Assembly (NCBI GenBank): GCA_964572475.1
Contig: CAZNEZ010000006.1
Location: forward strand, 6,389 to 70,388
DNA length: 64,000 nucleotides
DNA from: an uncultured Lachnospiraceae bacterium
GTDB lineage: Bacteria; Bacillota; Clostridia; Lachnospirales; Lachnospiraceae
Reading direction: 5' to 3'
Position 1 is the first letter of the stretch. Every line of letters begins with the position of its first letter. The translations under genes were made by a program, and so were the position numbers. Shown here one piece after another: positions 8,684 through 63,169 of this stretch. The notes below the pieces were generated by a model that was not told the DNA's origin, did not search any database, and saw nothing but the letters and a program-made list of their open reading frames with translations.

Positions 8684-8818
8684 AATGATATCCTCCTTTG
8701 ATTGATGAACTTATTTTAATACAAAATCATATAAAATACAAGTCCTTGCATAAATTTAACATATGTAATATAATCTTATGCAAAAGGTGTGAACATTCAC
8801 GCAGAAAAGGAGATTATT

Positions 8819-9022: not shown

Positions 9023-9030
9023 TATATATT

Positions 9031-9078
9031 AAAAGGACTATTTATACCTTGAAATTGAGGTACAAATAGTCCTTTTTT
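9031..9078. terminator. bidirectional terminator between the DUF1858 gene (+) and mecA (-)
   Basis: AGGACTATTTATACCT pairs with AGGTACAAATAGTCCT (one mismatch), then T6. An A-run on the left flank serves the minus strand. Confidence 0.65.
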
Positions 9079-9113
9079 GAATAGAAATTACGCAAAAATC
9101 TGTTCGTCTTTTT

Positions 9114-9932
9114 CTAAAGTAGGGATAATTGCTGCATAGCATTATCTTTTAATATAGGTTTATAATGTTCTTTGTAAAATGATTCGCTGCTATATGTGGC
9201 TCTTTCAGGGACACCATATTCTGATAGAATGTTGCATACTCTATTAAAACCTTCTGGACTTTGATCTGATAGAGTAACCACAAGATAGTAGTGATTGTTC
9301 TTCAAGTTCTTGTATAGCGAATTCTTTCCTGAATATTGAGAAGTTGCTATTCGTGAAGCATTAATAATACAATTCAAATCTGAAAATCGATATATCTTAG
9401 TTAAATCAACCTTTATGATACTGTCAGGCTCTAGCGGATTCTTAACTCCATTAGAAGCTTTGGGTATTGAAGAAGACAAGCCTGATTCTGATAGTATATT
9501 CTGAAATGAAGAAGCTTTGTTATCCTTAGAAGCACTGTTAGCAATCTCTGATAGATTCTTAAACAAATCAACTACTTCATCAGCGCCAACAAACTCTTGT
9601 GATGATGGATCATCATCTAAATCAGTAAAGTCATCATCTTCCTCAGAAGGAGCAAATTTTGAGAACCTGGTATCAAGTTCTTCTGGGTCATCAACTTTAG
9701 TAATAATAAGAACGATACAATCTGTAGAAACAGGAATAGCTTCTATCATAAGAGGAATATCCTCGGCTTCAAATCCAAACTCGGCAGAAGCCTGCTGCAT
9801 CATATCTTTAAAAAGACCCTTTGCTTTTTCGGTACCGTATGCTAGTTCACTGATTTTAATCTGCCTGGAAGCCAGGTCCGATTTATTTAAAGTACACTTT
9901 ATCTGATTATCATTAATCTTTTCTATTTTCAT
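9114..9932 (-). CDS. mecA: adaptor protein MecA (ClpC adaptor)
   Basis: N-terminus MKIEKINDNQIKCTLNKSDLASRQIKISELAYGTEKAKGLFKDMMQQASAEFGFE...PLMIEAIP, an acidic linker, then a C-terminal domain. ATG 9932 with SD AGAGGTG is preferred to the ATG at 9959. Confidence 0.8.
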   Translation of the reverse strand: MKIEKINDNQIKCTLNKSDLASRQIKISELAYGTEKAKGLFKDMMQQASAEFGFEAEDIPLMIEAIPVSTDCIVLIITKVDDPEELDTRFSKFAPSEEDDDFTDLDDDPSSQEFVGADEVVDLFKNLSEIANSASKDNKASSFQNILSESGLSSSIPKASNGVKNPLEPDSIIKVDLTKIYRFSDLNCIINASRIATSQYSGKNSLYKNLKNNHYYLVVTLSDQSPEGFNRVCNILSEYGVPERATYSSESFYKEHYKPILKDNAMQQLSLL

Positions 9933-10114
9933 AAAAGACACCTCTTTTCTGTTGTCCAAGACAACGGGTAAAGAACATTAAAGTATCTTATCCTATATTA
10001 TATAGTATAAACCATTTTTAATTCATCTGTAAAGCCTATATTGATTAAAAAACTGTAAATTAATTACGGCAAAATATGTTAAAAATTTTAAAAATAATAT
10101 TATGAAAATAATGC

Positions 10115-10143
10115 TTGCATTATTATATGCATTAGGTTATAAT
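10115..10143 (+). promoter_or_regulatory. sigma-A type promoter upstream of the kinase cluster
   Basis: TTGCAT (10115-10120), 17 nt spacer, TATAAT (10138-10143). Confidence 0.5.
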
Positions 10144-10220
10144 TTTTTACATGAGATATCACATATTGTATGTATGATAACTGAAAGGAGGAAGTAATTA
10201 TACTCGAAGAAGGAACCGAG

Positions 10221-11609
10221 TTGTTTGGAAAATATAGAATAATTAAGGTTATAGGAGAAGGAAGCAGTTGCACAGTCTATCTTGTTGAGTATATGATGTT
10301 AGGGGTTAAAAGGGCCATTAAGCAGGTAAAAAGGGGGCTCATTACAGAAGAGATTTTTTATCAGGAAGTCAATATTCTTAAGCGTCTTAAACATCAATTT
10401 ATTCCAATATTATATGATATAGAAAAAGATGATGAATTCTATTATATAGTTGAGGAATATCTACCGGGCGAATCTCTTGCCCAATTATTATCACATCAAA
10501 AACAGATAAGCCAAGAGGAAATAGTAACAATAGCATTACAGTTATGCAATATACTTGAGTATCTTTTGGAAGCCACAGAGATTCCGATTTTATACCTTGA
10601 TATACAACCGAACAACATTATTTATAAAGATGGCAGCATTTATTTGATTGATTTTGGATGTGCTAGTTTTGCAACCGATTTAGAAAACAAAAAGAATTAT
10701 TATGGAACGGTTGGATTTGCGTCGCCAGAACAGTATGAAGGTTCAATTCTAAAGGAAAGTTCTGATATATATAGTCTTGGAGCACTTATGTACTATTTAT
10801 GCGTAGGAAATAGAATTTTAAATATAAAAATTTTAGATTTTTCAGTACTTACGCATATAAGTGATTCATTTAAAAGAGTTATATGTCAATGTATGAATTA
10901 TCATATACATGAACGATATGAAACTATCTCAGAAGTTAAAGAACAGCTTATGCTGATTCAAAAAAATGAATTATCTTACATAACAGATAATGAATCTCAA
11001 AAGATATTGATTATAGGCACTAAAACCAGAGTTGGTACAACTCATTTCGCAATAGCACTTACATCATACTTGTCAAAAACAGGCGTAAATGCTGTTTATA
11101 TCGAAAAAAATAATAGTGGACATGTAATGAATATGGTTAGCAAACTTAATATGAATAGAAGAAGAGAAGGCTTTTATTATTTTAAGGATTGCAATATGGT
11201 ACCATTATATAACGATACCATAGCTATAGATATGTATGGATATACACAAGTAATTGATGGAGGGGTATATAATTCCTCTATAAATGTGGATAATTGCAAA
11301 ATATTTATAGTATCTGGTGCAAAACAATGGGAAGAGGATGGGTTAGAAGTGATACTACAGGATGTGAGTATCCGGTCAAATGCTCAGGTTATATATAATA
11401 TGGCTGATGAAAAACTAGTAAGAACAGAGAATGCAAGACATAAGGTGAACGGGATAAGAATGCCATATTGTTTTGATCCTTTTGAGGAGGATTACATTTT
11501 GAATAAGTTTTTCAATAATCTATTTGACAAAGAAATAAGGGGAAATCGGGTTGGCATTAAGAAGAAAATCAGACAGAAACTCAAAGGGAAAATTAAAAGA
11601 AATTCGTAA
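10221..11609 (+). CDS. Hanks-type Ser/Thr protein kinase fused to a degenerate MinD/ParA/TadZ-like domain
   Basis: Kinase motifs: GEGSSCTVY, RAIKQV, catalytic loop YLDIQPNN, IDFGCAS, GFASPEQ. The C-terminal ~200 aa has a deviant, Lys-less Walker A (ILIIGTKTRVGTTH). Start uncertain: the strong GGAGG at 10187-10191 is spaced for ATT 10197 or ATA 10200 rather than TTG 10221. Confidence 0.75.
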   Translation: MFGKYRIIKVIGEGSSCTVYLVEYMMLGVKRAIKQVKRGLITEEIFYQEVNILKRLKHQFIPILYDIEKDDEFYYIVEEYLPGESLAQLLSHQKQISQEEIVTIALQLCNILEYLLEATEIPILYLDIQPNNIIYKDGSIYLIDFGCASFATDLENKKNYYGTVGFASPEQYEGSILKESSDIYSLGALMYYLCVGNRILNIKILDFSVLTHISDSFKRVICQCMNYHIHERYETISEVKEQLMLIQKNELSYITDNESQKILIIGTKTRVGTTHFAIALTSYLSKTGVNAVYIEKNNSGHVMNMVSKLNMNRRREGFYYFKDCNMVPLYNDTIAIDMYGYTQVIDGGVYNSSINVDNCKIFIVSGAKQWEEDGLEVILQDVSIRSNAQVIYNMADEKLVRTENARHKVNGIRMPYCFDPFEEDYILNKFFNNLFDKEIRGNRVGIKKKIRQKLKGKIKRNS

Positions 11610-12207
11610 GAGAAGTTCAAAGGGTATACCCTTGGGAGAAAATGCTACAGGAATAATAGTAGTAGGAGAATGTGCGCAGACGGAAGATAGTAAAATGGTT
11701 TCCGTTTTACTTGCTAATTATTATGCAGGTTTTGTAAAAAAGAAAACAGCATATATTTCCCTTGCAAGTGTTAATGATTACATTTGCATAAGAGACTATT
11801 ATAGGTGCAATGAAACAAAAGGTGGTTTTGTGCTATATGATGTAATGTATAGTAATGGAACAGGAAAATCAGACATTGCAGACCTGGTTAGTAAGGGATA
11901 TGACATTATAATAATTAATGTGGGAAACAAATTTTTAAAATATCAAGATGAGATAAAAAGGTGCAGTTACAGAATTGTGTGTGGAAGAATTAACCCATTT
12001 GACAATAATTCTTTGTGCGAATTTATCAAAAGCCATACGGACGAAAAATGGACATATCTAGTTGAATGCTGGGAATCCTCAAGTATTAGGGCTTTTGAAA
12101 GGGAGTATGCGCTTACAATACATAATTTTGAATATAATATTAATCCATTTAGTATTAAAGCTGACACCATAAATTTTATTGAGGATATTATGTGTTGCGT
12201 TGATTAA
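11551..12207 (+). CDS. stand-alone degenerate SIMIBI (ParA/TadZ-like) domain protein, paralogous to the kinase C-terminus
   Basis: GIIVVGECAQTEDSKMVSVLLANYYAGFVKKKTAYISL ... YDIIIINVG has the same strand/loop/helix/strand order as the kinase C-domain but no P-loop. Only TTG 11551 (SD AAGGGG) lies upstream of the conserved first strand. Overlaps the kinase stop by 59 nt. Confidence 0.5.
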   Translation: MALRRKSDRNSKGKLKEIRKRSSKGIPLGENATGIIVVGECAQTEDSKMVSVLLANYYAGFVKKKTAYISLASVNDYICIRDYYRCNETKGGFVLYDVMYSNGTGKSDIADLVSKGYDIIIINVGNKFLKYQDEIKRCSYRIVCGRINPFDNNSLCEFIKSHTDEKWTYLVECWESSSIRAFEREYALTIHNFEYNINPFSIKADTINFIEDIMCCVD

Positions 12208-12223
12208 CGTAGAGGGAGTGTAA

Positions 12224-12826
12224 ATGATAAGGAGAAAACATAAGAAAATAATTTTGATAGTAAGTTTTTCTTGTACAATTATTGTTATTGGCATAATACT
12301 GTGTTACCTTACATGGTCAAAAAAAGATGAATTACCAGAATCTAAGTTAAATAGTAATATAGAGATTGAATTACCGAGTGCAGAGGTTAAAGCTGATATC
12401 ACGAATAATTCAGATAATATTCAAAGGTACGTTAGCTATAGTGAAATAAGTGGCATAGAATATCTAACAACAGACTCAATGTTTGATGTGCGTATATTAT
12501 TTCCAAATGGAGAAGACTATATTGTACTTAAGGAAAAAGAGGCTTATGAACTTATAGAAGGCAGGATTAAGCTAAGAGTTTCTGAAGTAGAAATACAGAA
12601 GATGTCAAGTGCAATAACGGACCTAATAGTATATCAAGGTAGTAAGATATATTTGTCAGAATATACGGGAAGTATAGCTACATCAGAAGCAGATTATCCA
12701 CCAAACTTTGATGTAATAAAGAGACTGGAATGGTCTCAAAATATATCAGACAGCCTAAAATTAGAAACGGATAGAAGCAGAAGGCAAGCACTAGAAGAAA
12801 ATCTTACAGACTTTTTTGGACTATGA
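12224..12826 (+). CDS. single-pass membrane protein (faint CpaB/RcpC-like ectodomain)
   Basis: KK-rich N-terminus followed by a TM helix (IILIVSFSCTIIVIGIILCYL), then a ~165-aa external domain. SD GGAG upstream. Family assignment is inference only. Confidence 0.5.
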   Translation: MIRRKHKKIILIVSFSCTIIVIGIILCYLTWSKKDELPESKLNSNIEIELPSAEVKADITNNSDNIQRYVSYSEISGIEYLTTDSMFDVRILFPNGEDYIVLKEKEAYELIEGRIKLRVSEVEIQKMSSAITDLIVYQGSKIYLSEYTGSIATSEADYPPNFDVIKRLEWSQNISDSLKLETDRSRRQALEENLTDFFGL

Positions 12827-12935
12827 ACAAAGAAACAAAAAGACAAAATAATCTGAGGTGTATAATAATATATCACGAACATGACCATACCCCATTGGCT
12901 GCTATACATCTCAGATATTATGATTGGAGATAAAA

Positions 12936-13172
12936 ATGCTTACTAAAAATGATAGAGAAGTATTAAAAAAGTACTTTGCGATAAGAAAAGAATTAAAAGA
13001 ATATGAAAAAAATGGTATACCAATCACTTACAATGGAAAGCTAATGAGCGCAAACTGTGTTGCAAAAATATGTGCTTTTAGTTGTAATGGACTAAGTATG
13101 CATAATACTATTTACGAAAGTGATAATATTCATTTTCGAGAAATAGAATACATGAATATAGGATATTGTTAG
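12936..13172 (+). CDS. small hypothetical protein (78 aa)
   Basis: ORF with SD GGAGA 6 nt before ATG 12936 (the track starts at TTG 12924). No motif recognised. Confidence 0.35.
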   Translation: MLTKNDREVLKKYFAIRKELKEYEKNGIPITYNGKLMSANCVAKICAFSCNGLSMHNTIYESDNIHFREIEYMNIGYC

Positions 13173-13362
13173 TAAAATAGGGTAGTGGCTAATTATGATT
13201 CCCTCAAAGCCGGAATATAATAGATGGTAAGATATCAGCTGCTACAGGGAGGGCGGGAATATATTGAGTATTCTCAAGTAACTTCTTGTTTGATTCGGCA
13301 TAATATGCTAAAATAAGTGCATTAATTACAAAAAGAAATGCATTGGGTTAGGAGATTAAGAA

Positions 13363-15096
13363 GTGAAGAGAAAAAGGAAGACAGGATTATTGTTATTGTC
13401 ATTATTTATAGCTGTTTCATTGGCTGGCTGCAGTATGGATGATTCTAATAAGGACAAAGAAGACCTGAAAAGTTATTACTCTATTACACAGAACAATCAG
13501 TGTGCAATAGTTATGGGCAATACAATTACTGAAGAATTGGGAATAATAAAAGACAGTAAGGTATATTTACCAGTTGATGTGGTGAATGAATATCTGAATA
13601 AAAAGTTTTACTATGACAGCGTAGAAAATATAATGCTGTATACAAATTCTACACAGACAATGAAAGTAGTACCTGAGACAACGGTATTTACGCTTGGCGA
13701 TAGCAGTACGGATGCTGGATATACAATATCGACAGTAGTAGAGGGCCAATTATATATTAATATTGAATTTGTTCAGAAGTATACTAATATGGAATATAAT
13801 CTGGTTACTAATCCTAACAGGGTTGTGATTACATACCAGTATAACATTCCATCCCAATATGCAGAATTAAGTAAAGATGCAGCAATACGAGTTAATAAAA
13901 GCAGATATGATAATATCCTGGAAGATGGAAGCCAAGGTCAAAAAGTCATTGTAATAGGTGAGGATAATGGATGGCAAAAGGTTAGAACACAATCTGGATT
14001 AATAGGATATATTGAATCAGATTCGTTGGATGAAATCAAGACAGAGACATTGTCAAGAGAGTTTAAAGAAGAAGTCTATAAGAGTATTTCCAAGGATTAC
14101 AAGATAGCACTTGCATGGCATCAGATGATATACGAAGGTGGTAATAGTTCATTTGAAGAGAAGACAGCTAATGCGAAGATTAATACGATATCTCCAACAT
14201 GGTTTACTTTAGATGGAAATAATGGAGAAATCAAGTCTATTGCAGATGCTTCGTATGTTAAAAAAGCGCATAATAAAGGTTGGGAAGTATGGGCACTTAT
14301 TGATGACTTTTCAAAGGATGAAGCAGGGAACCTTTATGTTTCTAGTGTATTATCCTCAACAACCACAAGGCAAAAGTTAGTATCTAACATTATGTCTGAA
14401 ATTTTAGATAATGATATTGATGGTATTAATATTGATTTTGAGAAGATTTCTAAGGCAAATGTCAAGAATTATCTTCAGTTTCTTAGAGAATTATCAGTTG
14501 AATGCAGAAAGAATGAGATAGTATTATCTGTAGATAATTATGTTCCGACTGCGTCTAACTCATATTATGACAGGGAAGAACAAGGTCAAATTGCTGATTA
14601 TGTAATAGTTATGGGATATGATGAACATTGGGCAGGATGCGGCTCGGCAGGTTCTAATGCTTCATTGCCATTTGTAACAAGTGGAGTAAAGGATACGGTT
14701 GCAGAGGTTGATTCTAAAAAGGTTATTAATGCCATGCCGTTTTATACAAGAGTGTGGATTGAGACACCAGAAGCTATGGCGGAAGAAGGCTCAACTATTA
14801 TAGAGGATTCTGTATATGGCAATTATGCATTGAGTAGTAAAACCGTTGGAATGACAGCGGCATCTGAAATGCTTAGTAGTCACGGAGTAACACCGACATG
14901 GGATCAGAGCATAGGACAGTACTACGGACAGTATGAAAGTGAAGGAAAAACATATAGAGTATGGGTTGAAGACACGAAATCTATTGGAGAAAAGATGAAA
15001 TTAGTATCAGAATATAACCTCGGTGGAATTGCAGCATGGAAGTTAGGACTTCAAGATGATGCTGTATGGAATGTAATATCTGAAGGATTGAAATAA
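13363..15096 (+). CDS. glycoside hydrolase family 18 lipoprotein with SH3b domain (YaaH/YdhD-type peptidoglycan hydrolase)
   Basis: Lipobox SLAGC. SH3b-like segment GQKVIVIGEDNGWQKVRTQSGLIGYIESD. GH18 catalytic motif DGINIDFE. GTG start with SD AGGAGA. Confidence 0.8.
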   Translation: MKRKRKTGLLLLSLFIAVSLAGCSMDDSNKDKEDLKSYYSITQNNQCAIVMGNTITEELGIIKDSKVYLPVDVVNEYLNKKFYYDSVENIMLYTNSTQTMKVVPETTVFTLGDSSTDAGYTISTVVEGQLYINIEFVQKYTNMEYNLVTNPNRVVITYQYNIPSQYAELSKDAAIRVNKSRYDNILEDGSQGQKVIVIGEDNGWQKVRTQSGLIGYIESDSLDEIKTETLSREFKEEVYKSISKDYKIALAWHQMIYEGGNSSFEEKTANAKINTISPTWFTLDGNNGEIKSIADASYVKKAHNKGWEVWALIDDFSKDEAGNLYVSSVLSSTTTRQKLVSNIMSEILDNDIDGINIDFEKISKANVKNYLQFLRELSVECRKNEIVLSVDNYVPTASNSYYDREEQGQIADYVIVMGYDEHWAGCGSAGSNASLPFVTSGVKDTVAEVDSKKVINAMPFYTRVWIETPEAMAEEGSTIIEDSVYGNYALSSKTVGMTAASEMLSSHGVTPTWDQSIGQYYGQYESEGKTYRVWVEDTKSIGEKMKLVSEYNLGGIAAWKLGLQDDAVWNVISEGLK

Positions 15097-15219
15097 AAAT
15101 AAGCGTCATGGCATGAATAAGATTGTCGTGGCGCTTATATGTATATTGAAAGAATTGTAGTACATAATCCGATTTGTTTGGCATAATATATAATGAATAT
15201 CTCTATATAAAGGTGCACA

Positions 15220-15945
15220 ATGATTAAAAATAAAATAGGAGAGATTATTAAGTTTACTACAGGAAGTAAAAGAAGAATTCTAGAGTTTGTAATGGGGATT
15301 TTGATGTTATCAGTGATATATGCATGTGCAATGCAGGCTAAAGATATTGCTACTATGAATGAGGAAAAAATACCCAAGATAGTGGTTATAGATGCTGGTC
15401 ATGGTGGGAATGATCCTGGTAAAGTTGGGATTAATGGTGCATTGGAAAAAGACATAAATCTTCAAATATCATTAAAAGTAAAAGATATACTGGAAAAACA
15501 AGATATTAGTGTTGTACTGACAAGGGAAGGCGATGAAGGGTTATATGATGAAAGTGATTCTAACAAAAAAATAGCAGATATGGTTAAAAGATGTGATATT
15601 ATAAATGGATCAGGAGCAGTAATAGCAGTTAGTATACATCAAAATAGTTATCATTCTGAAGGGGTTTCAGGTGCACAGGTATTTTATCATTCAAGTTCAA
15701 CGGAGGCAAAAAAACTGGCAGAAGGTATTCAATTAAGCCTAAAGGATAATGTTGATGAAGGAAATCAAAGACTGGCAAAAAGTAATAGTAGCTATTATTT
15801 ATTAATTCATTCACAATGTCCTATGGTTATTGTAGAATGCGGGTTTTTATCGAATTCTTCAGAGGCAGATATGCTGACTACAGATGAATATCAGAATAAA
15901 TTAGCTTACGCCATCAGTATGGGAATCATTTCATATGTAAATTAA
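15220..15945 (+). CDS. N-acetylmuramoyl-L-alanine amidase (Amidase_3), CwlD-like
   Basis: N-terminal TM helix, VVIDAGHGGNDPGKVG, SIHQNS, ECGFLSNSSEA. Its ~240-aa size and position next to the GH18 gene fit a CwlD-type cortex amidase. Confidence 0.8.
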   Translation: MIKNKIGEIIKFTTGSKRRILEFVMGILMLSVIYACAMQAKDIATMNEEKIPKIVVIDAGHGGNDPGKVGINGALEKDINLQISLKVKDILEKQDISVVLTREGDEGLYDESDSNKKIADMVKRCDIINGSGAVIAVSIHQNSYHSEGVSGAQVFYHSSSTEAKKLAEGIQLSLKDNVDEGNQRLAKSNSSYYLLIHSQCPMVIVECGFLSNSSEADMLTTDEYQNKLAYAISMGIISYVN

Positions 15946-15998
15946 TGTTTATATATACATAGTATTGTGGTATAATTATAGCTAATAAACTAAAAAAG

Positions 15999-17066
15999 AT
16001 GGTGTTAAAAGTGAAGACTATTATTAGTAAAATAAATCCAGAAAACATGGATATGGAACAGATGAAAAAAGCAGGTGAAATTATTAGGCAAGGCGGACTG
16101 GTTGGGTTTCCAACAGAGACTGTATATGGTCTTGGAGCTGATGGCCTTAATGATGAAGCAGCGGCTAAGATATATGCCGCAAAAGGAAGACCATCAGACA
16201 ATCCTCTAATTATCCATATAGCAGACAGAGATATGCTTAATGATCTGGTTGAAGGGGTTTCTGAAAAAGCAGAAATTCTCATGAAGACATTTTGGCCTGG
16301 ACCTATGACTTTGATTTTTGATAAAAGTAAAAAAGTTCCATATGGAACGACCGGTGGACTTGATACAGTTGCAATACGAATGCCTGTTCATCCAATTGCT
16401 CTTGAACTTATAAGACAGTCAGGAGTTGGAATTGCAGCTCCAAGTGCTAATATTTCAGGTAGACCAAGTCCTACAGAGGCACAGCACGTTATAGATGATA
16501 TGGATGGTAAAATAGAGATGATTATTGATGGAGGTAGTGTTTCAATAGGAGTCGAGTCAACGATTATTGATACTACCTGTGAACCTCCGATGATATTAAG
16601 ACCTGGCTATATAACGAGAGAGATGTTAGAGGAGGTTATTGGAGAAATAGAAGTTGACAAAGCGACAGTTGAGCCTCTTAGCGAATCTGTCAGGCCAAAG
16701 GCACCAGGTATGAAATATAGGCACTATGCTCCTAAGGCAGATCTTACAATGTATGAAGGCAAGACAGAATTAGTTGTTAAAATGATTAACAGCCATATTA
16801 TGAAGAGCCTTTCAGAAGGTAAAAAAGTTGGAGTTATCGCAACAGAGGAAACCAAAACGAGATATATAGGTGGTGAAGTTTTATCAATTGGCAGCAGAGA
16901 TGATGAAGAAAGTATTGCACGACATTTATATCATGTGTTAAGAGAATTTGATGACTTGAAAGTTGATGTAATATATAGTGAAGCATTTAACAGGCATGAC
17001 CTTGGACAGGCAATAATGAATCGTCTTGTTAAGGCAGCAGGATACAAAATAGTAAAATGTAATTAA
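15999..17066 (+). CDS. tsaC: L-threonylcarbamoyladenylate synthase (TsaC/Sua5, long form)
   Basis: YrdC-domain motif GGLVGFPTETVYGLGADG, SANISGRPSPT, plus a Sua5 C-terminal domain. Synteny matches B. subtilis ywlC-ywlE-ywlF. Confidence 0.9.
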   Translation: MVLKVKTIISKINPENMDMEQMKKAGEIIRQGGLVGFPTETVYGLGADGLNDEAAAKIYAAKGRPSDNPLIIHIADRDMLNDLVEGVSEKAEILMKTFWPGPMTLIFDKSKKVPYGTTGGLDTVAIRMPVHPIALELIRQSGVGIAAPSANISGRPSPTEAQHVIDDMDGKIEMIIDGGSVSIGVESTIIDTTCEPPMILRPGYITREMLEEVIGEIEVDKATVEPLSESVRPKAPGMKYRHYAPKADLTMYEGKTELVVKMINSHIMKSLSEGKKVGVIATEETKTRYIGGEVLSIGSRDDEESIARHLYHVLREFDDLKVDVIYSEAFNRHDLGQAIMNRLVKAAGYKIVKCN

Positions 17067-46250: not shown

Positions 46251-46892
46251 ATGGAAGACAGAGTAATCAAGATTAATGCACCAATGAATAATAAAATTGT
46301 ATTAAAAGTTGTACCTGGACATTTTGCTACTAATAATTCACATCTTAACTATTATTTGGATATGACGACAATAAAGTCCAGACAGAGTGAGGCTAAAGAA
46401 GTTGCTAAAGCATTAAAACTAGAATACGTATGTAATACTATAGTTGACACTATAGTGTGTATGGATGGCTGTGAAGTTATTGGAGCTTATCTGGCGGAAG
46501 AGTTATCAGAAGCTGGATTTATGTGTAGGAATGCGCATAAAACTATCTATATTGTTACACCAGAATATAATGCATCTGGTCAGATGATATTTAGAGATAA
46601 TCTTCAGATTGCAATTAAAGATAAGCATATTATTCTGTTGGTGGCATCGGCTACCACGGGTGGAACAGTGAAGAAAAGTATTGAGTGTATTAATTACTAT
46701 GGTGGTAATATTCAAGGAGTATCTGCTGTGTTTAGTGCGGTAGACCAGGTAGAAGGAATACATGTGGATTCAGTATTTAAGAAATCAGATGTACCAAATT
46801 ATGAGACATATGAAGCTCATGAATGTCCATATTGTAAAAAGGGACATAGGATAGAGGCAATTGTTAATAGCTTTGGATATTCAAAACTATAA
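46251..46892 (+). CDS. type I phosphoribosyltransferase-fold protein with degenerate PRPP motif
   Basis: The PRPP-loop region reads HIILLVASATTGGT, with Ala-Ser replacing the acidic pair. C-terminal CPYCKKGH. ATG 46251 with SD AGAGGAGG is preferred to TTG 46191. Extended -10 TGGTATAAT at 46154-46162. Confidence 0.6.
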   Translation: MEDRVIKINAPMNNKIVLKVVPGHFATNNSHLNYYLDMTTIKSRQSEAKEVAKALKLEYVCNTIVDTIVCMDGCEVIGAYLAEELSEAGFMCRNAHKTIYIVTPEYNASGQMIFRDNLQIAIKDKHIILLVASATTGGTVKKSIECINYYGGNIQGVSAVFSAVDQVEGIHVDSVFKKSDVPNYETYEAHECPYCKKGHRIEAIVNSFGYSKL

Positions 46893-46903
46893 AAATCACG
46901 AAA

Positions 46904-46969
46904 CAACATAGAACATTTAAGAAGAATGCTTCGCATTCTTCCAAGCACTTGCGCAGGCAAGTGCTTTTT
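46904..46969 (+). repeat. twin-hairpin intergenic element, copy 1
   Basis: CAACATAGAACATTTAA + GAAGAATGC-TTC-GCATTCTTC + CC + AAGCACTTGC-GCAG-GCAAGTGCTT + T-run. Confidence 0.9.
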
Positions 46970-46990
46970 AGATAATAGGAAATCATGCAG

Positions 46991-47057
46991 CAACATAGAA
47001 CATTTAAGAAGAATGCTTCGCATTCTTCCAAGCACTTGCGCAGGCAAGTGCTTTTTT
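46991..47057 (+). repeat. twin-hairpin intergenic element, copy 2 (tandem, 87-nt period)
   Basis: Identical core to copy 1, followed by ATAGGAAATTACGCAG (47058-47073). Confidence 0.9.
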
Positions 47058-47077
47058 ATAGGAAATTACGCAGACTA

Positions 47078-47881
47078 TTATAATTTAGGTTCATTATGAC
47101 TAGGCTTAAGATTAGGAGCTTCAGGAGCTTCTGAATTAAGAACATCTAAAGAAATCTTCATTATATTCTTAACTTCTTCCTCTGATAGAGACATATATTC
47201 ACAAAGCTCTTCTATGGTTGCCTCACGTCCTAATTTTTCTGCAAGTGTAGTTGAAGCATCACTTAATGCGTTTGCACGATCAGCGAGATGATTAGCTATT
47301 CGTTCAGAACCTGTTTGTTCTGCTATAGCATTTTCAAGAGACTGACATATAGATTCCCTAATATGAGAAGTAAAATCAGAATCTCCAGAGTAGGTTTTGA
47401 TTCCCTGAACTAGTCCCAGATTACCTTCCTGAATAAGGTCTCCCATGCCTACTCCATTTCCTTTGTAATTTTCAGCTAAATCTAAGACATATTGTAGCTT
47501 TAATTCAATTAATCTTTCAGAAGCTCCGGTATCACCAGACAAATATTCCTCGATAAGAAGCCTTTCTTCATCAGGTCCAGCAGGAACAATGGCATCCAGT
47601 TCTTCCAGATACATATTAACAAAATTAATCTCCATAGGGTCTTCTTTAACAACGTCATTTGTTACATTAGAGGAAAATTCGTTGTTAAGAGGGGCCTGAT
47701 AATGTTCGATAGAGATTTTGTTAGCAACTAAATATTCATATATATGTTCATACATATCTTTATTATCTATAATATCTTTAAATGTATCCTGTATCTGAGT
47801 GAGCTTTAACTTGTTGTTCTGAACACTAGCAAGTTCAACTAATGAGGCTAATGCTTGATTAAATTCAAATTTCTTATCCAT
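47078..47881 (-). CDS. primary-sigma-like protein with regions 1.1-3.1 but no region 3.2/4
   Basis: Region 1.2/2 (FVNMYLEEL..., LIELKLQYVLDLAENYKGNGVGMGDLIQEGNLGLVQGIKTY) and region 3.0/3.1 (LAEKLGREATIEELCEYMSLSEEEV) align with RpoD. The protein ends about 25 aa later. ATG 47881 with SD GGAG. Confidence 0.65.
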   Translation of the reverse strand: MDKKFEFNQALASLVELASVQNNKLKLTQIQDTFKDIIDNKDMYEHIYEYLVANKISIEHYQAPLNNEFSSNVTNDVVKEDPMEINFVNMYLEELDAIVPAGPDEERLLIEEYLSGDTGASERLIELKLQYVLDLAENYKGNGVGMGDLIQEGNLGLVQGIKTYSGDSDFTSHIRESICQSLENAIAEQTGSERIANHLADRANALSDASTTLAEKLGREATIEELCEYMSLSEEEVKNIMKISLDVLNSEAPEAPNLKPSHNEPKL

Positions 47882-48099
47882 AAAAACTCCATTCTTTATA
47901 ATTAAAAGGTTAATGAGTAACACTTAAATTGTACAAGGAATGTGTAAAAAATGCAAGAACCATCTAATCTTGGTAAGCTAGATAAGTTAAAGAAAGAGAA
48001 TAAGATGTAAATATAGATAATTCTGGTAAATAGTCAGGATTGAATACAAAAGAGTTTTGTTGTATAATAATTTCAATTGTATTTGAATAGGAGAAGAAT

Positions 48100-56204: not shown

Positions 56205-56345
56205 CTCTTATTCAGAGTGGTGGAGATACAAGGATCTGTGAAGCCCGGCAACCCCATATGGAAGGTGCCAACCTGAGCGAGTAATCGAGCAATAAGAGGA
56301 TTTGATTACCTTGATATCGAGTCCGCATTTGTGTGGACTTTTTTT
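56205..56345 (+). promoter_or_regulatory. SAM-I (S-box) riboswitch with terminator
   Basis: P1 CTCTTATT / AATAAGAG. Core AGAGTGGTGGAGATACAAGGATCTGTGAAGCCCGGCAACC...GGTGCCAACCTGAGC matches the S-box consensus. Terminator AGTCCGCA-TTTG-TGTGGACT followed by T7 (56320-56345). Upstream of metK. Confidence 0.88.
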
Positions 56346-56366
56346 ACTTTATAGGAAGCTACGCAG

Positions 56367-56433
56367 CAACATAGAACATTTAAGAAGAATACGAAGTATT
56401 CTTCCAAGTGTTCACGCTGGTGAACACTTTTTT
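56367..56433 (+). repeat. twin-hairpin intergenic element, copy 3 (inside the metK leader)
   Basis: CAACATAGAACATTTAA + GAAGAATAC-GAA-GTATTCTTC + CA + AAGTGTTCAC-GCTG-GTGAACACTT + T6. Flanked by a perfect 29-nt direct repeat (56340-56368 and 56428-56456). Confidence 0.9.
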
Positions 56434-56500
56434 ACTTTATAGGAAGCTACGCAGCAGCGTAATGTCACATATTTGTGATAAAACAGAAATGGAGGAAACA

Positions 56501-57688: not shown

Positions 57689-57750
57689 AGAATTAGCAGA
57701 GATTGACCACCTAAGAGATGCTTCAGGGAAATGTATTGCGTGGGGTAAGC

Positions 57751-60297
57751 ATGAGAAAACTTAAATCAAGAAAAAAAGATTTTATATACTTAGCTATATT
57801 AGTAATATTTACGTTAGTAATAATTAGTTTATTCAATAAGTCGGGCTACTATTTTGGCTCGGCTATTGATTGGATTAATCAACATATTTCAATTCCAGAC
57901 TATTTTAGAAAGGAATTCTATGCAACAGGTAATTTGATTCCCGATTTTGCAGGACAAATCGGAGGCGGTCAGAATATATTCAATTTTTCATATTACGGAT
58001 TACTGAGTCCAATTATTCTGTTTTCATATCTATTACCAATGGTTCCAATGTATGATTACCTCATTATGGTATCTATATTATCAGTGGTAATTTCAGCTGT
58101 ACTTATGTACATCTGGTTAAGAAAGAATAATCTAAAAGAGAGTGAATCATTTGTATCCACTCTATTTTTCGTACTAGCAACACCGCTAATATATCATAGT
58201 CATAGACATATGATGTTTGTTAACTATATGCCATTTTTAATATTAGCATTAATAGGTATTGATTCGTATTTTAAGAAAAAGAAACGTATACTAATGGTTT
58301 TAGGTATATTTCTTATGATTATGACAAGCTATTATTATAGTGTCTCTGGAATATGTGCCGCATCTGCCTATGCAGTATATAAGTATCTAATTACAAATAA
58401 AGATACTAAGTTTAAAATCAAAGATTTTTTGATAGAGGGTGCAAAATATGCAGGACATGTTGTGGTTGCTGTTTTAATGGCAGGAGTACTTATTTTACCA
58501 ACACTTTCTGCACTTATGGATAGAATGAGCATAGACACAGAATCAAGTGGTGGAAAATCATTTATCTCATTAGTTCTTCCGAATGGTGATTTTTCAAATG
58601 TATTATATTCTAGTTATGGAATGGGACTCACAGCCTTCTTTATACTTGTAATAATTGGGCTTTTAACAATAAAAGATAGACATACAAGATTTCTAGGTGT
58701 TGTTTTGGGAATTATAGTTGTTTTGCCAGTATTTACTTATATTTTGAATGGTACGTTATATTCCAGATCTAAAGTTTTGATACCATTTTTAACACTGGCA
58801 GGACTTGGAATTGGTATTGTAATAAGAGATATCAGAAAAATACTAATGAGATTTAAGCCGTTTATTGTAACACTAAGTGTTATAGTTATTATAGGAATTA
58901 TTAAGACTTCTGGAGATAGCAAGGCCGTATTTTTTGTTGATATGACTTTTGTTTTGTTATCTCTGTGGGCTTTTGTAAGATGGAAGAAGAAAGTTTTATT
59001 GTATGCAACATCACTTATTATTGCACTAATTAGCTGCATTGTTTCTAATCAAAGCGAAAGTTTTGTAGCAGCAGATGTAATTAATGATATATACAATAGT
59101 GATAAGCAGCAGGTTATTGATGATGTGCTTGATAAGGAGCTATATGGTACTTTTAGAAGTGACGACCTTACCAGAACTAAACAGACAGGAAATAATATTT
59201 ACAATGCTAATTTCTTTAGGACATCTATCTATTCATCTGCATATGTAGGAAGTTATAATAAGCTATTTCATGATACTTTTAGCAATCCCAATCCAGCATG
59301 CAACAGATTGAATTCTACAAGTAGCAATAATATTATATTTGAAACTTTAATGGGTGTTAAATATGCTGTATCAAAGAGTGAAGCACCTATTGGTTATGAG
59401 TTTGTAGAGCAATGTGGAGATTATAAGATATATAGGAATGATCATGTATTTTCACTTGGTTATGCAGCATCAGACATTATGAGTCTTAAGGAATATGATA
59501 AACTTGATACTTGTGACCAGATGATTGCATTATTAAAATATGTTATTGTAGATAAGGATATAAGCGAAGTATATTCAGATTTAACAACAGAAGAGAAAGA
59601 TATTGAATTACCAATCAGTAAGTCTGAAGAAGAAGGATATTTATATCACTACAAGTCTAATACTACAACCAAGTTTACAGTTAATACACCTGAAAATTAT
59701 AATGATAAGATATATATAATTGACATTATTTTTGATAAAGAACTTGCAAATGATGATATTCGTATTAATATTAATGGAATTAAACAGGTTCTTAGTGCAG
59801 CAAATGCACCATATCCTAATAAGAACTATACATTTAGATATGTAATATCCTCAAATGAAGCTAAGAATACACTTAAATTTGAATTAAATGAAGGGGATTA
59901 CTACATTAAAGATGTTAAAGTAAGAAGCATTGATTATGATGATGTTAAAGGGTATAAGGCTGAAAAAGATGAATTTGTAATGAATGAGAGAAAAACTGAT
60001 AATATTATTACAGGTTCAGTTGATGTAACAAAAGATGGATATTTTGCACTAACTATTCCAAATGCCGATGGATTTACAGCTTATGTTGATGGAAAAGTTA
60101 CAGATATAGAAACAGTGGATACTTCATTTATAGGATTTGAAATTACTAAAGGGCATCACGATATTAAAATAGTATATAATGCTCCAAAGTTAAAAGCAGG
60201 AAAGATGCTGTCTATAACAGGTGTTATACTATTTACATGTCTGATAGTTATACAAGTGGTTGATTTCAAAAAGAAGAATAAGAAGGAAAAAGAATGA
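57751..60297 (+). CDS. YfhO family membrane protein (putative cell-envelope glycopolymer glycosyltransferase)
   Basis: ~850 aa. Many N-terminal TM helices, a large extracytoplasmic C-terminal half and a terminal TM helix, as in YfhO. Start is ATG 57751 or ATG 57718. Confidence 0.6.
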   Translation: MRKLKSRKKDFIYLAILVIFTLVIISLFNKSGYYFGSAIDWINQHISIPDYFRKEFYATGNLIPDFAGQIGGGQNIFNFSYYGLLSPIILFSYLLPMVPMYDYLIMVSILSVVISAVLMYIWLRKNNLKESESFVSTLFFVLATPLIYHSHRHMMFVNYMPFLILALIGIDSYFKKKKRILMVLGIFLMIMTSYYYSVSGICAASAYAVYKYLITNKDTKFKIKDFLIEGAKYAGHVVVAVLMAGVLILPTLSALMDRMSIDTESSGGKSFISLVLPNGDFSNVLYSSYGMGLTAFFILVIIGLLTIKDRHTRFLGVVLGIIVVLPVFTYILNGTLYSRSKVLIPFLTLAGLGIGIVIRDIRKILMRFKPFIVTLSVIVIIGIIKTSGDSKAVFFVDMTFVLLSLWAFVRWKKKVLLYATSLIIALISCIVSNQSESFVAADVINDIYNSDKQQVIDDVLDKELYGTFRSDDLTRTKQTGNNIYNANFFRTSIYSSAYVGSYNKLFHDTFSNPNPACNRLNSTSSNNIIFETLMGVKYAVSKSEAPIGYEFVEQCGDYKIYRNDHVFSLGYAASDIMSLKEYDKLDTCDQMIALLKYVIVDKDISEVYSDLTTEEKDIELPISKSEEEGYLYHYKSNTTTKFTVNTPENYNDKIYIIDIIFDKELANDDIRININGIKQVLSAANAPYPNKNYTFRYVISSNEAKNTLKFELNEGDYYIKDVKVRSIDYDDVKGYKAEKDEFVMNERKTDNIITGSVDVTKDGYFALTIPNADGFTAYVDGKVTDIETVDTSFIGFEITKGHHDIKIVYNAPKLKAGKMLSITGVILFTCLIVIQVVDFKKKNKKEKE

Positions 60298-62189
60298 AGT
60301 TTAATAAATTCATTACATCAAAGAAAACAGTAACATATCTTTATATACCATTGATATTTACTATGGCGATAGAAGTGTTTTATAGACTATGTAATCTAAA
60401 ATTTGCTACGTGGGTTTATATTCCTGCACTAATTTTAGAATTTGCAATTATTGAAGCATTAATGATTATTTTTATATCTATTAGCAATAGCTCTAAGGTT
60501 GCGACAATAATAATTGCTATATTGCTTCTAATATTGTCTATTGCCAATCAGATTAAGATTCAATATTCAGATAACCCGATATTTATATCAGATTTGATGT
60601 TTGTTGATTCGGGAGATACATTTATAGATATTCTAAAAGATACAATCTATGATATGATATCAAATTTTATTCAACCTATAAAAATATTAGTATTTTTACT
60701 AGGTTCAGCGGTTGCCGTTGGATGTTTAAACAATATAAATTCTTACGCTATAAAGAAAAGACTGATTATGGGAGGCGCTTCGTGTGCAGGAATAATTTTT
60801 ATTTTGCTACCAATCACTCCTGTTAACAATGTGATTTTACATGTATTCTATAGCCTTGGTACAAGGAATATGGAATATTCAACTAATAACATAGTATATT
60901 ACAATAAATATGGTGTTATATCCGGAATGTGTGGACAACTCGTAGAAAATTATTTGGTTAAGCCAGATAGCTATACAGATGAAAGTCTGGATAGTATTTT
61001 ATCTAAATATGATGATAGAGAAACTGTTGGCGATTGGAATAAACCTAATATTATTATGGTATTTTCGGAATCGTTTTGGGATATTGAAAAAATTAGTAAT
61101 CAGGTGGAGTTTGATACAGATATAACCTCTAATTTTAATTCTCTAAAGAAGAAAGGTATATCATTTAACATGATTTCGCCTTCATTTGGGGGAATTTCCG
61201 CTAATCCAGAGTTAGAGATGCTTACAGGCTGCAGTCTTAAGTTTTTTAATAATGGATATATTCCATATATGCAGCTGATTAGAGGCGATAAATACTATAT
61301 GATGCCATCTGTTGTAAAGGAGCTTAATAATAATGACTATTATACAAAGATAGTATCAACATGGGGAAATAAGCTATTCAATTGTGAAGGAGTATATGAA
61401 TACTATCAGGTTGATGATGTAGAATATAAGAGTAATCTGAAAAATGCTAAGAAAAAGGGTGATAGAGTCTCAGATGAGTATATTACTGATAAAATAATTG
61501 ATGAATTTTCAAGAAAGCCAGTTGGGGAACAATGGTTTTATATGGTTTTGACAGCCCAGGCACATATGCCATATCTGGCAGACAAATATTCTGAAGATGA
61601 ATATGATATTTCCATTACAAATAGTAATCTTCCAGATGATATGAATGAAACACTTAGGTCATATGCACAAGGAATATATGATGCGGATAAGCAGTTGGGA
61701 AGACTGAATGAATATATACAGACTCTTGATGAGGATACAATAATTATATTCTATGGAGACCATCTTCCATATCTTAAAACGGAAGAGAGTCAGGATATAT
61801 ATGAATATTTGGATTATTTTAATACAGATGATGAGTTAACAAATACATATAGAAAGTATAATACAGAATGCTTAATATTGGCTAATTTTGATTTGAAAGA
61901 TGATGTGGATTATTTAGGTTCAGATCTTGTTATGTCATATGTGTTTAATCATATGAATATTAAGGTATCCAGCTATTATAAATGGCTAAATGCTACTAAA
62001 GATAAGCTGCCAGTGGGTAATCTAGAGGTATGTGCAGACTCAGAAGGAAATTTATATAAGACAACGGAGTTACCAACAAAGATGAAACGTCAGTTTGACA
62101 TTCGAGAACAGATGAACTGGAAATTCTTTGTGGAAGTGGTACCAGACGGTGTTGAAATAGAAACACCATCGAGTGAAGATAAAGATTAA
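60294..62189 (+). CDS. LTA synthase family (sulfatase/alkaline-phosphatase superfamily) membrane protein
   Basis: Five N-terminal TM helices followed by the external domain NIIMVFSESFW ... GGISANPELEMLTG ... TAQAHMPY ... FYGDHLP. ATGA overlap with the YfhO gene. Confidence 0.75.
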   Translation: MKFNKFITSKKTVTYLYIPLIFTMAIEVFYRLCNLKFATWVYIPALILEFAIIEALMIIFISISNSSKVATIIIAILLLILSIANQIKIQYSDNPIFISDLMFVDSGDTFIDILKDTIYDMISNFIQPIKILVFLLGSAVAVGCLNNINSYAIKKRLIMGGASCAGIIFILLPITPVNNVILHVFYSLGTRNMEYSTNNIVYYNKYGVISGMCGQLVENYLVKPDSYTDESLDSILSKYDDRETVGDWNKPNIIMVFSESFWDIEKISNQVEFDTDITSNFNSLKKKGISFNMISPSFGGISANPELEMLTGCSLKFFNNGYIPYMQLIRGDKYYMMPSVVKELNNNDYYTKIVSTWGNKLFNCEGVYEYYQVDDVEYKSNLKNAKKKGDRVSDEYITDKIIDEFSRKPVGEQWFYMVLTAQAHMPYLADKYSEDEYDISITNSNLPDDMNETLRSYAQGIYDADKQLGRLNEYIQTLDEDTIIIFYGDHLPYLKTEESQDIYEYLDYFNTDDELTNTYRKYNTECLILANFDLKDDVDYLGSDLVMSYVFNHMNIKVSSYYKWLNATKDKLPVGNLEVCADSEGNLYKTTELPTKMKRQFDIREQMNWKFFVEVVPDGVEIETPSSEDKD

Positions 62190-62713
62190 AATAAAAAAAT
62201 TAAAAAAAATGCAAAAAGGGTGTTGTAAATCACCCCTTAATCTCGTTTATATATATAGGAGAACAAAATAATAGCATTTTATTGGGTAAATAGAAACTGT
62301 TAAATCACAAGGTAGTGCAAAATGAGGAATATTATGATTAATATAGGAGTTATTATGTATGAAAAAACACTAATTATATTTAATAAAGTATTATAAATTA
62401 ATATGTGAGATTACTATGATTAATATACGAATGTATCGAGGGGGTTAAAATAAAAAAGAGTTAAGATAATTTATATAAGAAATTAGTATTAAAAGTAGAG
62501 TGTGTAGAAATATACACCCTGCTTTTTTGAAAAATAGGAAACTAAGCAGAAGAGTAAAATATTTAAGAAGGACTGCAAAAGTACATATTTGAAAAGCTAA
62601 TAATATGTGTTAATTAATAATAATACTTAATGTATACAAATGATATATAGTATTATATAATTAAAAAAATAAATTTGTATGCGTACAATAAATACGCGGA
62701 AATGAGGAATATT

Positions 62714-62974
62714 ATGACTGACTATGATGATTCATCAACTTATTCAACTGCCTCTGGAAACAGCCAATTACGTTATGTTGTTTTGCAGGTAACCCTGAAA
62801 GAGAAATTTATAGGAACTGGATCAGGTAACTTAACAGCATTAGAGAATGTAATTAATGAGCAGGCTTCAAAAGGCTATAGGTTACATACTATTACTACTG
62901 CATCAGCTAGCAGTGGTGGATTTCTCGGCGGTGACAGAATTCAGGCAACAATGGTATTTGAAAAGCTAGTATAA
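62714..62974 (+). CDS. small DUF4177-like protein
   Basis: 86 aa. YVVLQV...LENVINEQASKGYRLHTI...MVFEK pattern. ATG 62714 with SD GAGGAA is preferred to the listed TTG 62675. Confidence 0.5.
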   Translation: MTDYDDSSTYSTASGNSQLRYVVLQVTLKEKFIGTGSGNLTALENVINEQASKGYRLHTITTASASSGGFLGGDRIQATMVFEKLV

Positions 62975-63029
62975 TTGTAAAAGGTTAAATATTTTTTAGA
63001 GAATAGTTTATGTAATGAAGAATGCGTAG

Positions 63030-63097
63030 CAACATAGAACATTTAAGAAGAATGCTCCGCATTCTTCCAAGCGCTTGTGCCGACAAGCGCTTTTTTT
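63030..63097 (+). repeat. twin-hairpin intergenic element, copy 4
   Basis: CAACATAGAACATTTAA + GAAGAATGC-TCC-GCATTCTTC + CC + AAGCGCTTGT-GCCG-ACAAGCGCTT + T7. Confidence 0.9.
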
Positions 63098-63169
63098 AAG
63101 AGAAAGTTTATATCCCTCTTTTTATCTATGTGTTATAATAAATAAAACACATAGAAAGGTAGTTTTTGC

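Follow-up and report, generated by a model that had tools for sequence, protein, structure and literature searches.

The window, that is, the whole 64,000-nt stretch of DNA that was analysed, has a G+C content of ~33% and a GC skew of +0.20 to +0.28, and nearly all of its genes lie on the plus strand. Based on the positive skew and the gene orientation, the plus strand is the leading strand. The exact 17-mer CAACATAGAACATTTAA was found four times in the window, on the plus strand only, at 46904, 46991, 56367 and 63030, each time as the start of a twin-hairpin module, here termed E; the chance figures of this search apply to matches with up to three mismatches, and all four E matches are exact. 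Copies 1 and 2 are placed between the stop codons of two convergent genes, one encoding an unannotated protein of 233 aa and the other a sigma-70-like protein. Copy 3 is located in the metK 5′ leader, where a SAM riboswitch (56205–56340, plus strand; aptamer 56205–56298, terminator 56319–56340) lies upstream of a short sequence box (M, described below), E and metK, so that the copy sits between the riboswitch terminator and the metK ATG at 56501. Copy 4 is flanked by a DUF4177 gene on one side and by the extended −10 promoter of a HAMP histidine kinase gene on the other. Among the 10 neighbouring proteins scanned, under an annotation that is partial, the window showed no transposase or recombinase.

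Architecture of the E module

Each E copy comprises an unpaired 17-nt leader, a palindromic first hairpin (HP1; 9 bp with a 3-nt loop), a single C, a second hairpin (HP2; 10 bp with a 4-nt loop) and a T-tract. The module measures 66–70 nt and the whole unit 87–88 nt. Predicted folding energies range from −22.9 to −27 kcal/mol, with z-scores of −6.3 to −7.2 against shuffles for the four copies. In copy 1 (46904–46971), the leader occupies 46904–46920, HP1 46921–46941 and HP2 46943–46966, and the T-tract extends to 46971 (covariance model score, 107.4 bits). Copy 2 (46991–47057; 110.9 bits) is identical to copy 1, with the leader at 46991–47007, HP1 at 47008–47028 and HP2 at 47030–47053 ahead of its T-tract. 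Copy 3 (56367–56433) consists of a leader at 56367–56383, an HP1 at 56384–56404 that has A:T at pair 8 and the loop GAA, an HP2 at 56406–56429 with five pairs changed, and a T-tract. Copy 4 (63030–63097) has its leader at 63030–63046, an HP1 at 63047–63067 with the loop TCC, an HP2 at 63069–63092 with two pairs changed, and likewise a T-tract. All four are on the plus strand. An initial annotation of this DNA had reported four plus-strand copies with the same 17-mer start and an 87-nt tandem period, which the exact-match search and the repeat comparison confirmed; the two-base spacer that it placed between the hairpins is in fact one base, the C.

Across the aligned copies, the sequence is invariant from the 17-mer through the outer part of HP1 and then again at ATTCTTCCAAG, and the 41-nt 5′ part of E is the same in all four copies, at three loci spaced 6–10 kb. 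The tandem pair (copies 1 and 2) forms a 77-nt direct repeat of 96% identity with a period of 87 nt, and its three differences all fall in the 11 nt left of E, with none in the 66 nt of E. Since copies 1 and 2 are identical over these 66 nt but their left flanks differ, E is constrained or homogenised independently of its flanks. Being identical over 66+ nt, the two count as one, which leaves three independent E sequences among the four.

HP2 has the features of an intrinsic terminator, namely a G+C-containing stem of at least 5 bp, a loop of 3–8 nt and a T-tract directly after it. In copies 2, 3 and 4, it was predicted as a terminator by both a terminator scan and a stricter scan, and copy 1 carries the same hairpin followed by TTTTT. 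According to the terminator scans, HP2 is the sole terminator-like hairpin for the upstream gene at copies 1/2 and at copy 4.

The M box and the flanking repeats

The M box has the form T-tract-(A)CTTTATA-(CAA)-GGAAATTACGCAG and is commoner than E, with ~10 copies in ~78 kb. When up to two mismatches were allowed, its 13-nt core was found six times in the window against 1.16 expected, and none of 100 shuffles reached six. Three further M boxes were located in ~14 kb of same-species contigs flanking the window. One is found past the terminator of an ABC-like gene, another immediately behind a T-box leader (116.8 bits with the Rfam model), 42 nt before the start codon, and the third, in the rpsF–ssb spacer of contig L015, is inverted and adjoins no terminator. 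Five M boxes are found 0–8 nt past the T-tract of resident, non-element terminators (9081, 56346, 62534, L015:5131 and L020:5590), and the terminators directly followed by M include those of the SAM riboswitch and the T-box. M is present behind three of the ~10 strictly predicted resident terminators and behind two more with imperfect stems; since most other resident terminators are without it, M is optional and no general termination signal.

That the motif also occurs alone, as had been proposed, was borne out, and M is a genuine separate unit. The solo box ATAGAAATTACGCAA (9081–9095, plus strand) starts 2 nt past the T-tract of a resident terminator between the convergent DUF1858 gene and mecA. 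M boxes without E precede A/T-rich stretches that are weakly leader-like: at 62534–62571 (plus strand; 14.7 bits), the solo box ATAGGAAACTAAGCAG, itself past a hairpin and T-tract, is followed by the decayed leader-like stretch AAGAGTAAAATATTTAAGAAGG (62550–62571).

Each E, starting with CAACATAG, begins exactly past an M-like box, the junction being ...GCAG/C at copies 2 and 3, ...GAAA/C at copy 1 and ...GTAG/C at copy 4, and an M box is found again past the HP2 T-tract at copies 1–3. At the tandem pair, a degenerate M-like box left of copy 1 (TATAAAAATCACGAAA, 46888–46903; AAATCACGAAA versus AAATCATGCAG) overlaps the stop codon of the upstream gene, a second box lies between the copies (ATAGGAAATCATGCAG, 46975–46990), and a third lies past copy 2 (ATAGGAAATTACGCAG, 47058–47073), where the stop codon of the convergent sigma-like gene is 4 nt away; all three are on the plus strand. 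These boxes are not identical, a difference for which simple target duplication and simple tandem duplication both fail to account. Around copy 3, a T-tract, ACTTT and M box past the SAM-riboswitch terminator (56340–56366, plus strand) and the same series past the copy (56428–56454, plus strand, 47 nt before the metK ATG) are the left and right halves of a direct repeat that is exact over 27 nt and 94% identical over 34 nt, with the locus-specific M variant GGAAGCTACGCAG. The direct repeat around copy 4 is imperfect (20 nt at 75% identity, T-tract included); its left copy, a T-tract with AGAGAATAGTTTAT, is followed by AATGAAGAATGCGTAG (together 62992–63029, plus strand), and its right copy is TTTTTTAAGAGAAAGTTTAT (63092–63111, plus strand). 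AATGAAGAATGCGTAG is a partial duplicate of the HP1 5′ arm and pairs with the HP1 3′ arm. The motif ATAGGAA-N3-ACGCAG, thought at first to bracket every copy, does so at copies 1–3 but not at copy 4, where the left flank is the partial HP1 5′ arm (GAAGAATGCG) and the right flank is a degenerate relative only.

E could be a substrate of a single-strand DNA transposase (IS200/IS605 TnpA or a RAYT-like HUH enzyme), with HP1 as its left and HP2 as its right subterminal hairpin. Insertion would then take place in the lagging-strand template, on the 3′ side of a short target (YGNAR, e.g. CGCAG); since E would end in the same sequence, newcomers would be inserted beside existing right ends, giving rise to arrays, and solo M boxes would be right-end remnants after slippage between T-tracts. 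In line with such an origin, E has two subterminal hairpins, no terminal inverted repeats and a 17-nt linker from the left boundary to HP1; it is always inserted right past ...GCAG, GTAG or GAAA and occurs in a tandem array; its stems are strictly Watson–Crick; and the hairpin-forming strand is the plus strand in all copies, a leading-strand sequence and hence the lagging-strand template. However, one enzyme normally recognises both hairpins, whereas HP1 and HP2 are unrelated in sequence and HP2 is variable. The 4 nt 5′ of the hairpin feet (TTAA, TTCC) show no complementarity to the cleavage sites that this reading requires and do not match GCAG, and the IS200/IS605 family makes no target duplication, yet copy 3 has the 27-nt exact flanking repeat. 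These same features argue against E being derived from an IS200/IS605 element. Additionally, no Y1/HUH gene was seen in the partially annotated 64 kb, and copy 4 is without the right-end motif. We consider mobilisation by such an enzyme decidedly unlikely. Integron attC, dif/Xer and CRISPR readings were also rejected, as their defining sequence features are missing.

Covariation of the stems

In the four-copy alignment, 76 of 76 pair cells (19 pairs) are Watson–Crick, with no G:U. The original observation that the stems differ yet remain fully Watson–Crick was accurate, as were the stem sequences and the numbers of changed pairs given with it (five at 56.4 kb and two at 63.0 kb). Seven of the 19 pairs, HP1 pair 8 and six in HP2, are changed on both sides. 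None of 500 shuffles attained the observed values, and slid partners pair only 38–49%. All seven double changes are transition/transition and are concentrated in the apical halves of the stems, which form perfect palindromes. The HP1 loop is TTC in copies 1 and 2, and copy 3 has its reverse complement, GAA. HP2 is divergent at up to five of its seven inner pairs, whereas the leader and HP1 are invariant.

Transition-only covariation fits RNA-level compensation via G:U intermediates, and it fits equally well with replication template switching, by which perfect hairpins are made and mended in a single step without selection (PMC8794818). With three independent sequences only, the two are not separable. 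The covarying stems had been read as a selected RNA or ssDNA structure rather than unrelated terminators; the copies are indeed one homologous family whose stems are kept paired by double changes, but selection is not established by three sequences and a pattern that template switching also gives. The contrast of an invariant leader and HP1 with a diverged HP2 and drifting flanks argues for a sequence-specific constraint or for concerted evolution of the 5′ module. It also counts against a recent burst of transposition and suits purifying selection on a functional RNA.

Such an RNA could belong to a family of sibling sRNAs of ~70 nt, derived from 3′ UTRs or leaders or independently transcribed, with the 17-mer and HP1 as the seed or protein-binding part and HP2 as terminator only. 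M would be a processing site (cleavage past ...GCAG) or a promoter element, and the 5′ end would be expected at or near the C of CAACAUAG. An invariant 5′ region followed by a freely covarying terminator stem is the pattern of multicopy sRNAs, and the seven double changes, all transition pairs, have a route via G:U intermediates. Every copy points the same way as the genes upstream of it, on the leading strand; E has stayed conserved as its flanks drifted; and tandem duplication, as in the pair at copies 1 and 2, is frequent for sibling sRNAs such as OmrA/B and LhrC1–4. However, no consistent sigma-70-type promoter lies upstream, the best candidates having a −10 element without the invariant T and variable spacing, and it is difficult to see why an sRNA gene with a strong terminator should sit between a riboswitch and the start codon of metK. 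Despite 100% conservation among the paralogues, no orthologue was found in the other species searched; nor is there any G:U among the 76 pair cells or any relative in Rfam. An sRNA family is an alternative that we take seriously but think unlikely.

Other functional elements were sought in the same sequence. No consistent match to a promoter of the sigma-70, sigma-54, ECF or sporulation (E, K and G) types was found in M plus leader by eye and by scan; the best candidate, a sigmaE-like ATA-N16-CATAGAAC with 6/8 positions in the −10 element, is absent in copy 4. A conserved small ORF in E was also rejected, as an ATG is present only in copies 1, 2 and 4 and the ORFs are not conserved.

An alternative pairing in the metK leader

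A terminator that acts constitutively between a riboswitch and an essential gene would be expected to do harm. When the whole metK leader was folded, the leader segment GAACAUUU of copy 3 (56374–56381) paired with the HP2 5′ arm AAGUGUUC (56406–56413) over 8 bp, with HP1 on top. The description of the 17-mer as an invariant single-stranded segment is thus right as to its invariance, but in copy 3 the segment can pair. In a transcription-order prefix that does not yet contain the 3′ arm, the helix between the leader and the HP2 5′ arm is the minimum-energy fold, at −18.6 kcal/mol. In the full sequence, the alternative structure has −16.9 kcal/mol versus −22.9 kcal/mol for the terminator form, i.e. 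the antiterminator is thermodynamically the weaker of the two. The same pairing has −6.4 kcal/mol in copies 1 and 2 and −11.9 kcal/mol in copy 4. In the arm of copy 3, four of the five changed positions moved to the base required for pairing with the leader; this arm is among the top 2.1% of the 16,384 possible inner 7-mers, and among the 128 transition variants it comes 7th (p ~0.02–0.05).

Based on these folding predictions, the leader:HP2-5′ pairing of copy 3 is a plausible and modestly supported candidate antiterminator that would permit metK expression. The five compensated changes in HP2 would let its 5′ arm pair with the leader, and this pairing, forming first in the course of transcription, would favour read-through.

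E also has an effect on gene calling, in that it yields spurious N-terminal extensions of downstream genes, e.g. metK calls of 408 aa and 426 aa.

Distribution in the species, its relatives and databases

In two relatives whose MetK is 90% identical, the metK leader retains the SAM riboswitch together with a terminator that is nearly identical, but in both of them M and E are absent from this leader and from the region upstream of the orthologous kinase gene. Their absence at these orthologous sites indicates that M and E were gained in the lineage studied here. A more distant relative (L003) has an unrelated 125-nt hairpin element at the same place in the metK leader, so the spot past the riboswitch terminator seems to be insertion-prone.

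Two local origins were also considered. The similarity AATTTACGCGCAG in L004, which could have made M ancestral in the metK leader, comes from a genome with ~86% MetK identity and from an assembly duplication, and the 90%-identity relatives are without M. For a derivation of the E leader and HP1 arm from the metK ribosome-binding region, the best match, at the metK SD/start of L013, had a score of 16 versus 15 and 14 and was not significant. Both origins were rejected.

The same species, with the same three loci, is present in the Logan assemblies of at least six SRA runs from two groups of run numbers, among them SRR33579945, SRR33579946, SRR33579976, SRR33579977, SRR8925797 and SRR8925798. 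At all three loci, the k=31 contigs break off at ...CAACATAGAACATTTAAGAAGAAT or begin at (T)CCAAG, with HP2 coming next. These breaks inside E confirm independently that it is a repeat and that the insertions are common to several samples. In practical terms, E breaks short-read assemblies.

The initial annotation could not assign E to a named family, and the Rfam scan agreed: in Rfam 15, no family reached the gathering threshold for E, only the SAM riboswitch passing in the window, and at E ≤ 10 the best scores on 46850–47110 were 10–20 bits versus thresholds of 40–141. An exact 19-mer scan of 185,579 GTDB species representatives gave two chance matches only (a cyanobacterium and a member of the Bdellovibrionota), and a 20-mer scan of JGI metagenomes gave three, also by chance and within coding sequence. 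There were no E matches in IMG/VR viral contigs, and neither PLSDB nor phage records gave anything in a blastn search (word 11) with the tandem pair. When the four reading frames that are open through E were searched at the protein level for spurious ORFs with other copies, none was found. Run with filters off on the window and 17 related loci, a covariance model of M plus E retrieved nothing beyond the four copies and, at the edges of contigs, their truncated ends, its weak matches (up to 23 bits) being ordinary terminators. The M core had 44 matches in viral contigs, all coding or by chance and none with the T-tract/CTTTATA context. The initial annotation had proposed a search for more copies elsewhere, but no further full copy turned up in ~78 kb of the species or in any collection searched. 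E is a real, previously unnamed repeat family, found at three loci in one under-sampled species, which its MetK assigns to the Lachnospiraceae-like Clostridia.

The full copies all lie within 17 kb, with none in the other ~60 kb examined, and tandem plus partial duplications are seen at every locus. They could have arisen as ordinary terminators multiplied by local duplication and gene conversion, in a few segmental or slippage events within one 17-kb region, with no mobility and with termination as the sole function; template switching can create and maintain perfect hairpins (PMC8794818). However, the three loci share only M and E and no co-duplicated flank, and at each of them E is inserted at the identical point with respect to M. 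M boxes extend over at least 78 kb, one of them inverted, and the copies are missing at the orthologous sites of relatives. We regard purely local multiplication as very unlikely.

Proposed origin and spread of the M and E units

The reading that we prefer, and to which we give about an even chance of being correct, is that M and E together form a lineage-restricted, non-coding and non-autonomous small interspersed repeat of the SPRITE/bcr1/REP kind, which spreads duplicatively and supplies sense-strand intrinsic terminators. The M box lies just downstream of the T-tracts of resident intrinsic terminators, riboswitch and T-box terminators included. E is always planted exactly past the last base of an M-like box and brings a canonical terminator, after which a T-tract and M recur. 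It would spread duplicatively into M-bearing post-terminator sites, either through a trans-acting enzyme or through template switching at terminator hairpins and T-tracts, and its putative mobility would yield the 20–34-nt locus-specific flanking direct repeats and the tandem arrays. The chief consequence for the cell would be sense-strand transcription termination together with a 3′-end hairpin. The boundaries of insertion are putative ones, read from the three independent copies themselves.

A more specific proposal is that M plus E is a terminator-homing module that integrates 3′ of a terminator T-tract/M box and duplicates 20–34 nt of the target, the imported terminator then being tuned by the host, as the HP2 antiterminator of copy 3 would exemplify. 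The mechanism would be a staggered integration similar to that of the Cas1 type, or template-switch copying primed by the hairpin or T-tract. To our knowledge, neither staggered Cas1-like integration nor template-switch copying has been described for bacterial small repeats, and we view terminator homing as rather improbable.

If the duplicatively spreading terminator repeat proposed above is the right reading, E provides a compact example, from the Lachnospiraceae, an abundant and poorly studied group of the gut and rumen, of repeats that distribute ready-made terminators. Two of its features would stand out: a separate landing-pad box, M, right past resident terminators, including those of two riboswitch-type leaders, and a copy in the leader of the essential metK gene whose terminator has apparently been neutralised by compensated changes, as the predicted folds suggest.

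Comparison with known systems

MITEs are by definition elements with inverted repeats at their termini and with short target duplications, and E falls outside them. E is similar to those of the RUP and Correia/nemis types in being small, non-autonomous, structured, intergenic and multi-copy and in that such elements can carry regulatory signals. However, its ends (CAACATAG... and ...CTTTTTT or ...ACGCAG; for MITE membership, CAACATAGAAC... and ...GTGCTTTTTT or ...ACGCAG) are not inverted repeats, the only inverted repeats being its two internal hairpins, and its flanking repeats measure 27–34 nt at copy 3 and ~20 nt at copy 4 as against target-site duplications of 2–10 bp. Class C group II introns insert by preference just downstream of intrinsic terminator hairpins. 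The likeness is one of target choice only, since E is far too small, is not built like an intron, does not begin with GUGYG and lacks a reverse transcriptase.

REP/BIME sequences, like E, are short, species-specific extragenic palindromes downstream of genes or between convergent genes; a role in termination or mRNA stabilisation, and mobilisation in trans, have been proposed for them (PMC3733652). REPs are single imperfect palindromes of 20–40 bp with a GTAG/CGTC tag at the stem foot, often in inverted pairs, G+C rich, mostly proteobacterial and RAYT-associated (PMC3733652). In contrast, E forms no inverted dimers; its two hairpins are perfect, differ from each other and follow in direct order, and 17 nt of leader precede the first stem. 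With GCAG/GTAG located 17 nt upstream of HP1 instead of at the stem foot, and with two distinct hairpins, it does not belong to the REPs.

E does not represent a new kind of system and joins the well-known small structured intergenic repeats that carry terminators, with a reach that appears to be one lineage. As summarised in PMC3184786, bcr1 of the Bacillus cereus group (Okstad 2004, Klevan 2007) is a Firmicute interspersed repeat of ~155 bp with two independent stem-loops, whose stems are kept by compensatory changes; it is transcribed, its genomic distribution is non-conserved, and it is regarded as a special class of mobile sequence. By that description, bcr1 is flanked by 5-bp direct repeats, whereas the flanks of E are 20–34 nt with a T-tract and M box, and E is half the size and has a canonical terminator as its 3′ hairpin. 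SPRITE (2011), summarised in the same paper, is a small interspersed non-coding repeat of a Firmicute with a predicted structure that includes a Rho-independent-terminator-like hairpin, as in E. E differs from it, again by description, in being shorter (core of ~70 nt, unit of 87–88 nt), in its second, palindromic hairpin, its invariant 17-nt leader and its separate M box, and in its host, an unrelated member of the Lachnospiraceae-like Clostridia. Multi-copy, structured and absent at the orthologous sites of relatives, E at its three loci has, by behaviour, its nearest analogues in SPRITE and bcr1, as far as the descriptions in PMC3184786 allow the comparison.

The metK leader and the position behind its terminator

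Upstream of metK, a SAM (S-box) riboswitch with its terminator occupies positions 56205-56340 (68 bits), and the same leader carries copy 3 of the element. Gene callers run the metK ORF too far upstream, through the element or through the M box, the short separate motif that flanks copies 1-3, and the resulting N-termini, as in a 408-aa database entry (P0002) and a 426-aa ORF from 56408, are spurious. In another Lachnospiraceae species, a long-hairpin insertion of about 125 nt lies directly 3' of the metK SAM-riboswitch terminator (ENA contig L003, 1815-1945), and there too the metK gene call is overlong (495 aa). This insertion folds very stably (region: -83 kcal/mol, z-score -8.9) and is unrelated to the element of the window. 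The position after the metK riboswitch terminator is taken in that species by a structured element of another kind.

M boxes outside the window

A T-box leader (116.8 bits) is found about 5 kb to the right of the window, at 5378-5618 of L020, a Logan contig from the same species. An M box, CTTTATACAAGGAAATTACGCAG, stands immediately 3' of the T-tract of its terminator, with the start codon 42 nt further on, and this is a second riboswitch-type leader with an M box. To the left of the window, a contig of the same species (L015) bears an inverted M box, CTTTATAGGTAATTACGCAT, on the minus strand at 6335-6354. This box lies in the rpsF-ssb spacer, overlapping the stop codon of rpsF, and has no adjoining terminator. 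The plus strand of this spacer shows a short direct repeat, ATGCGTAAG...ATGCGTAAT.

Surroundings of copy 4 and of the tandem copies

In two relatives with 90% identical MetK (L010 and L013), metK is followed immediately by a paired HAMP histidine kinase and response regulator. Compared with these loci, the window shows an inserted block at 57718-62974, in which YfhO, a sulfatase/LtaS-like gene and DUF4177 separate metK from the kinase; the right edge of this block is the site of copy 4. An exact 18-nt repeat, AAATGAGGAATATTATGA, comprising a ribosome-binding site and start codon, occurs at 62320-62337 and 62700-62717, 380 nt apart, and the DUF4177 gene begins at the second occurrence. At the first starts a short ORF that looks dead, within an A/T-rich spacer of 490 nt; a solo M box is also found in this spacer.

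The left flank of copy 4 contains AATGAAGAATGCGTAG (63014-63029), a duplicate of the 5' arm of its first hairpin (HP1). Since 10 bp can form between this duplicate and the 3' arm of HP1 (fold -33.4 versus -26.4 kcal/mol), copy 4 has an alternative structure of its own. The duplicated arm suggests a truncated earlier copy upstream.

Beside the tandem copies, a minus-strand gene (47078-47923) encodes a sigma-70-like protein of 281 aa, in which only regions 2 and 3 were detected and region 4 gave no match. Its stop codon lies 4 nt from an M box, and the gene has no own-strand terminator except the reverse side of the element.

Relatives and chromosomal setting

The MetK of one relative (L004/P0003, GCA_029782595.1) has an internal 47-aa tandem duplication, with a repeated segment that includes DENHRPI; the duplication is probably an assembly artefact; its bit score exceeded those of closer relatives because the duplication inflated it. 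Positions 1-17000 of the window, together with contigs L014 and L015, carry rpsF-ssb-rpsR, a GdpP-like protein, L9 and dnaB. The GC skew here is strongly positive, and the region looks like leading-strand DNA close to the replication origin of a Firmicute chromosome.
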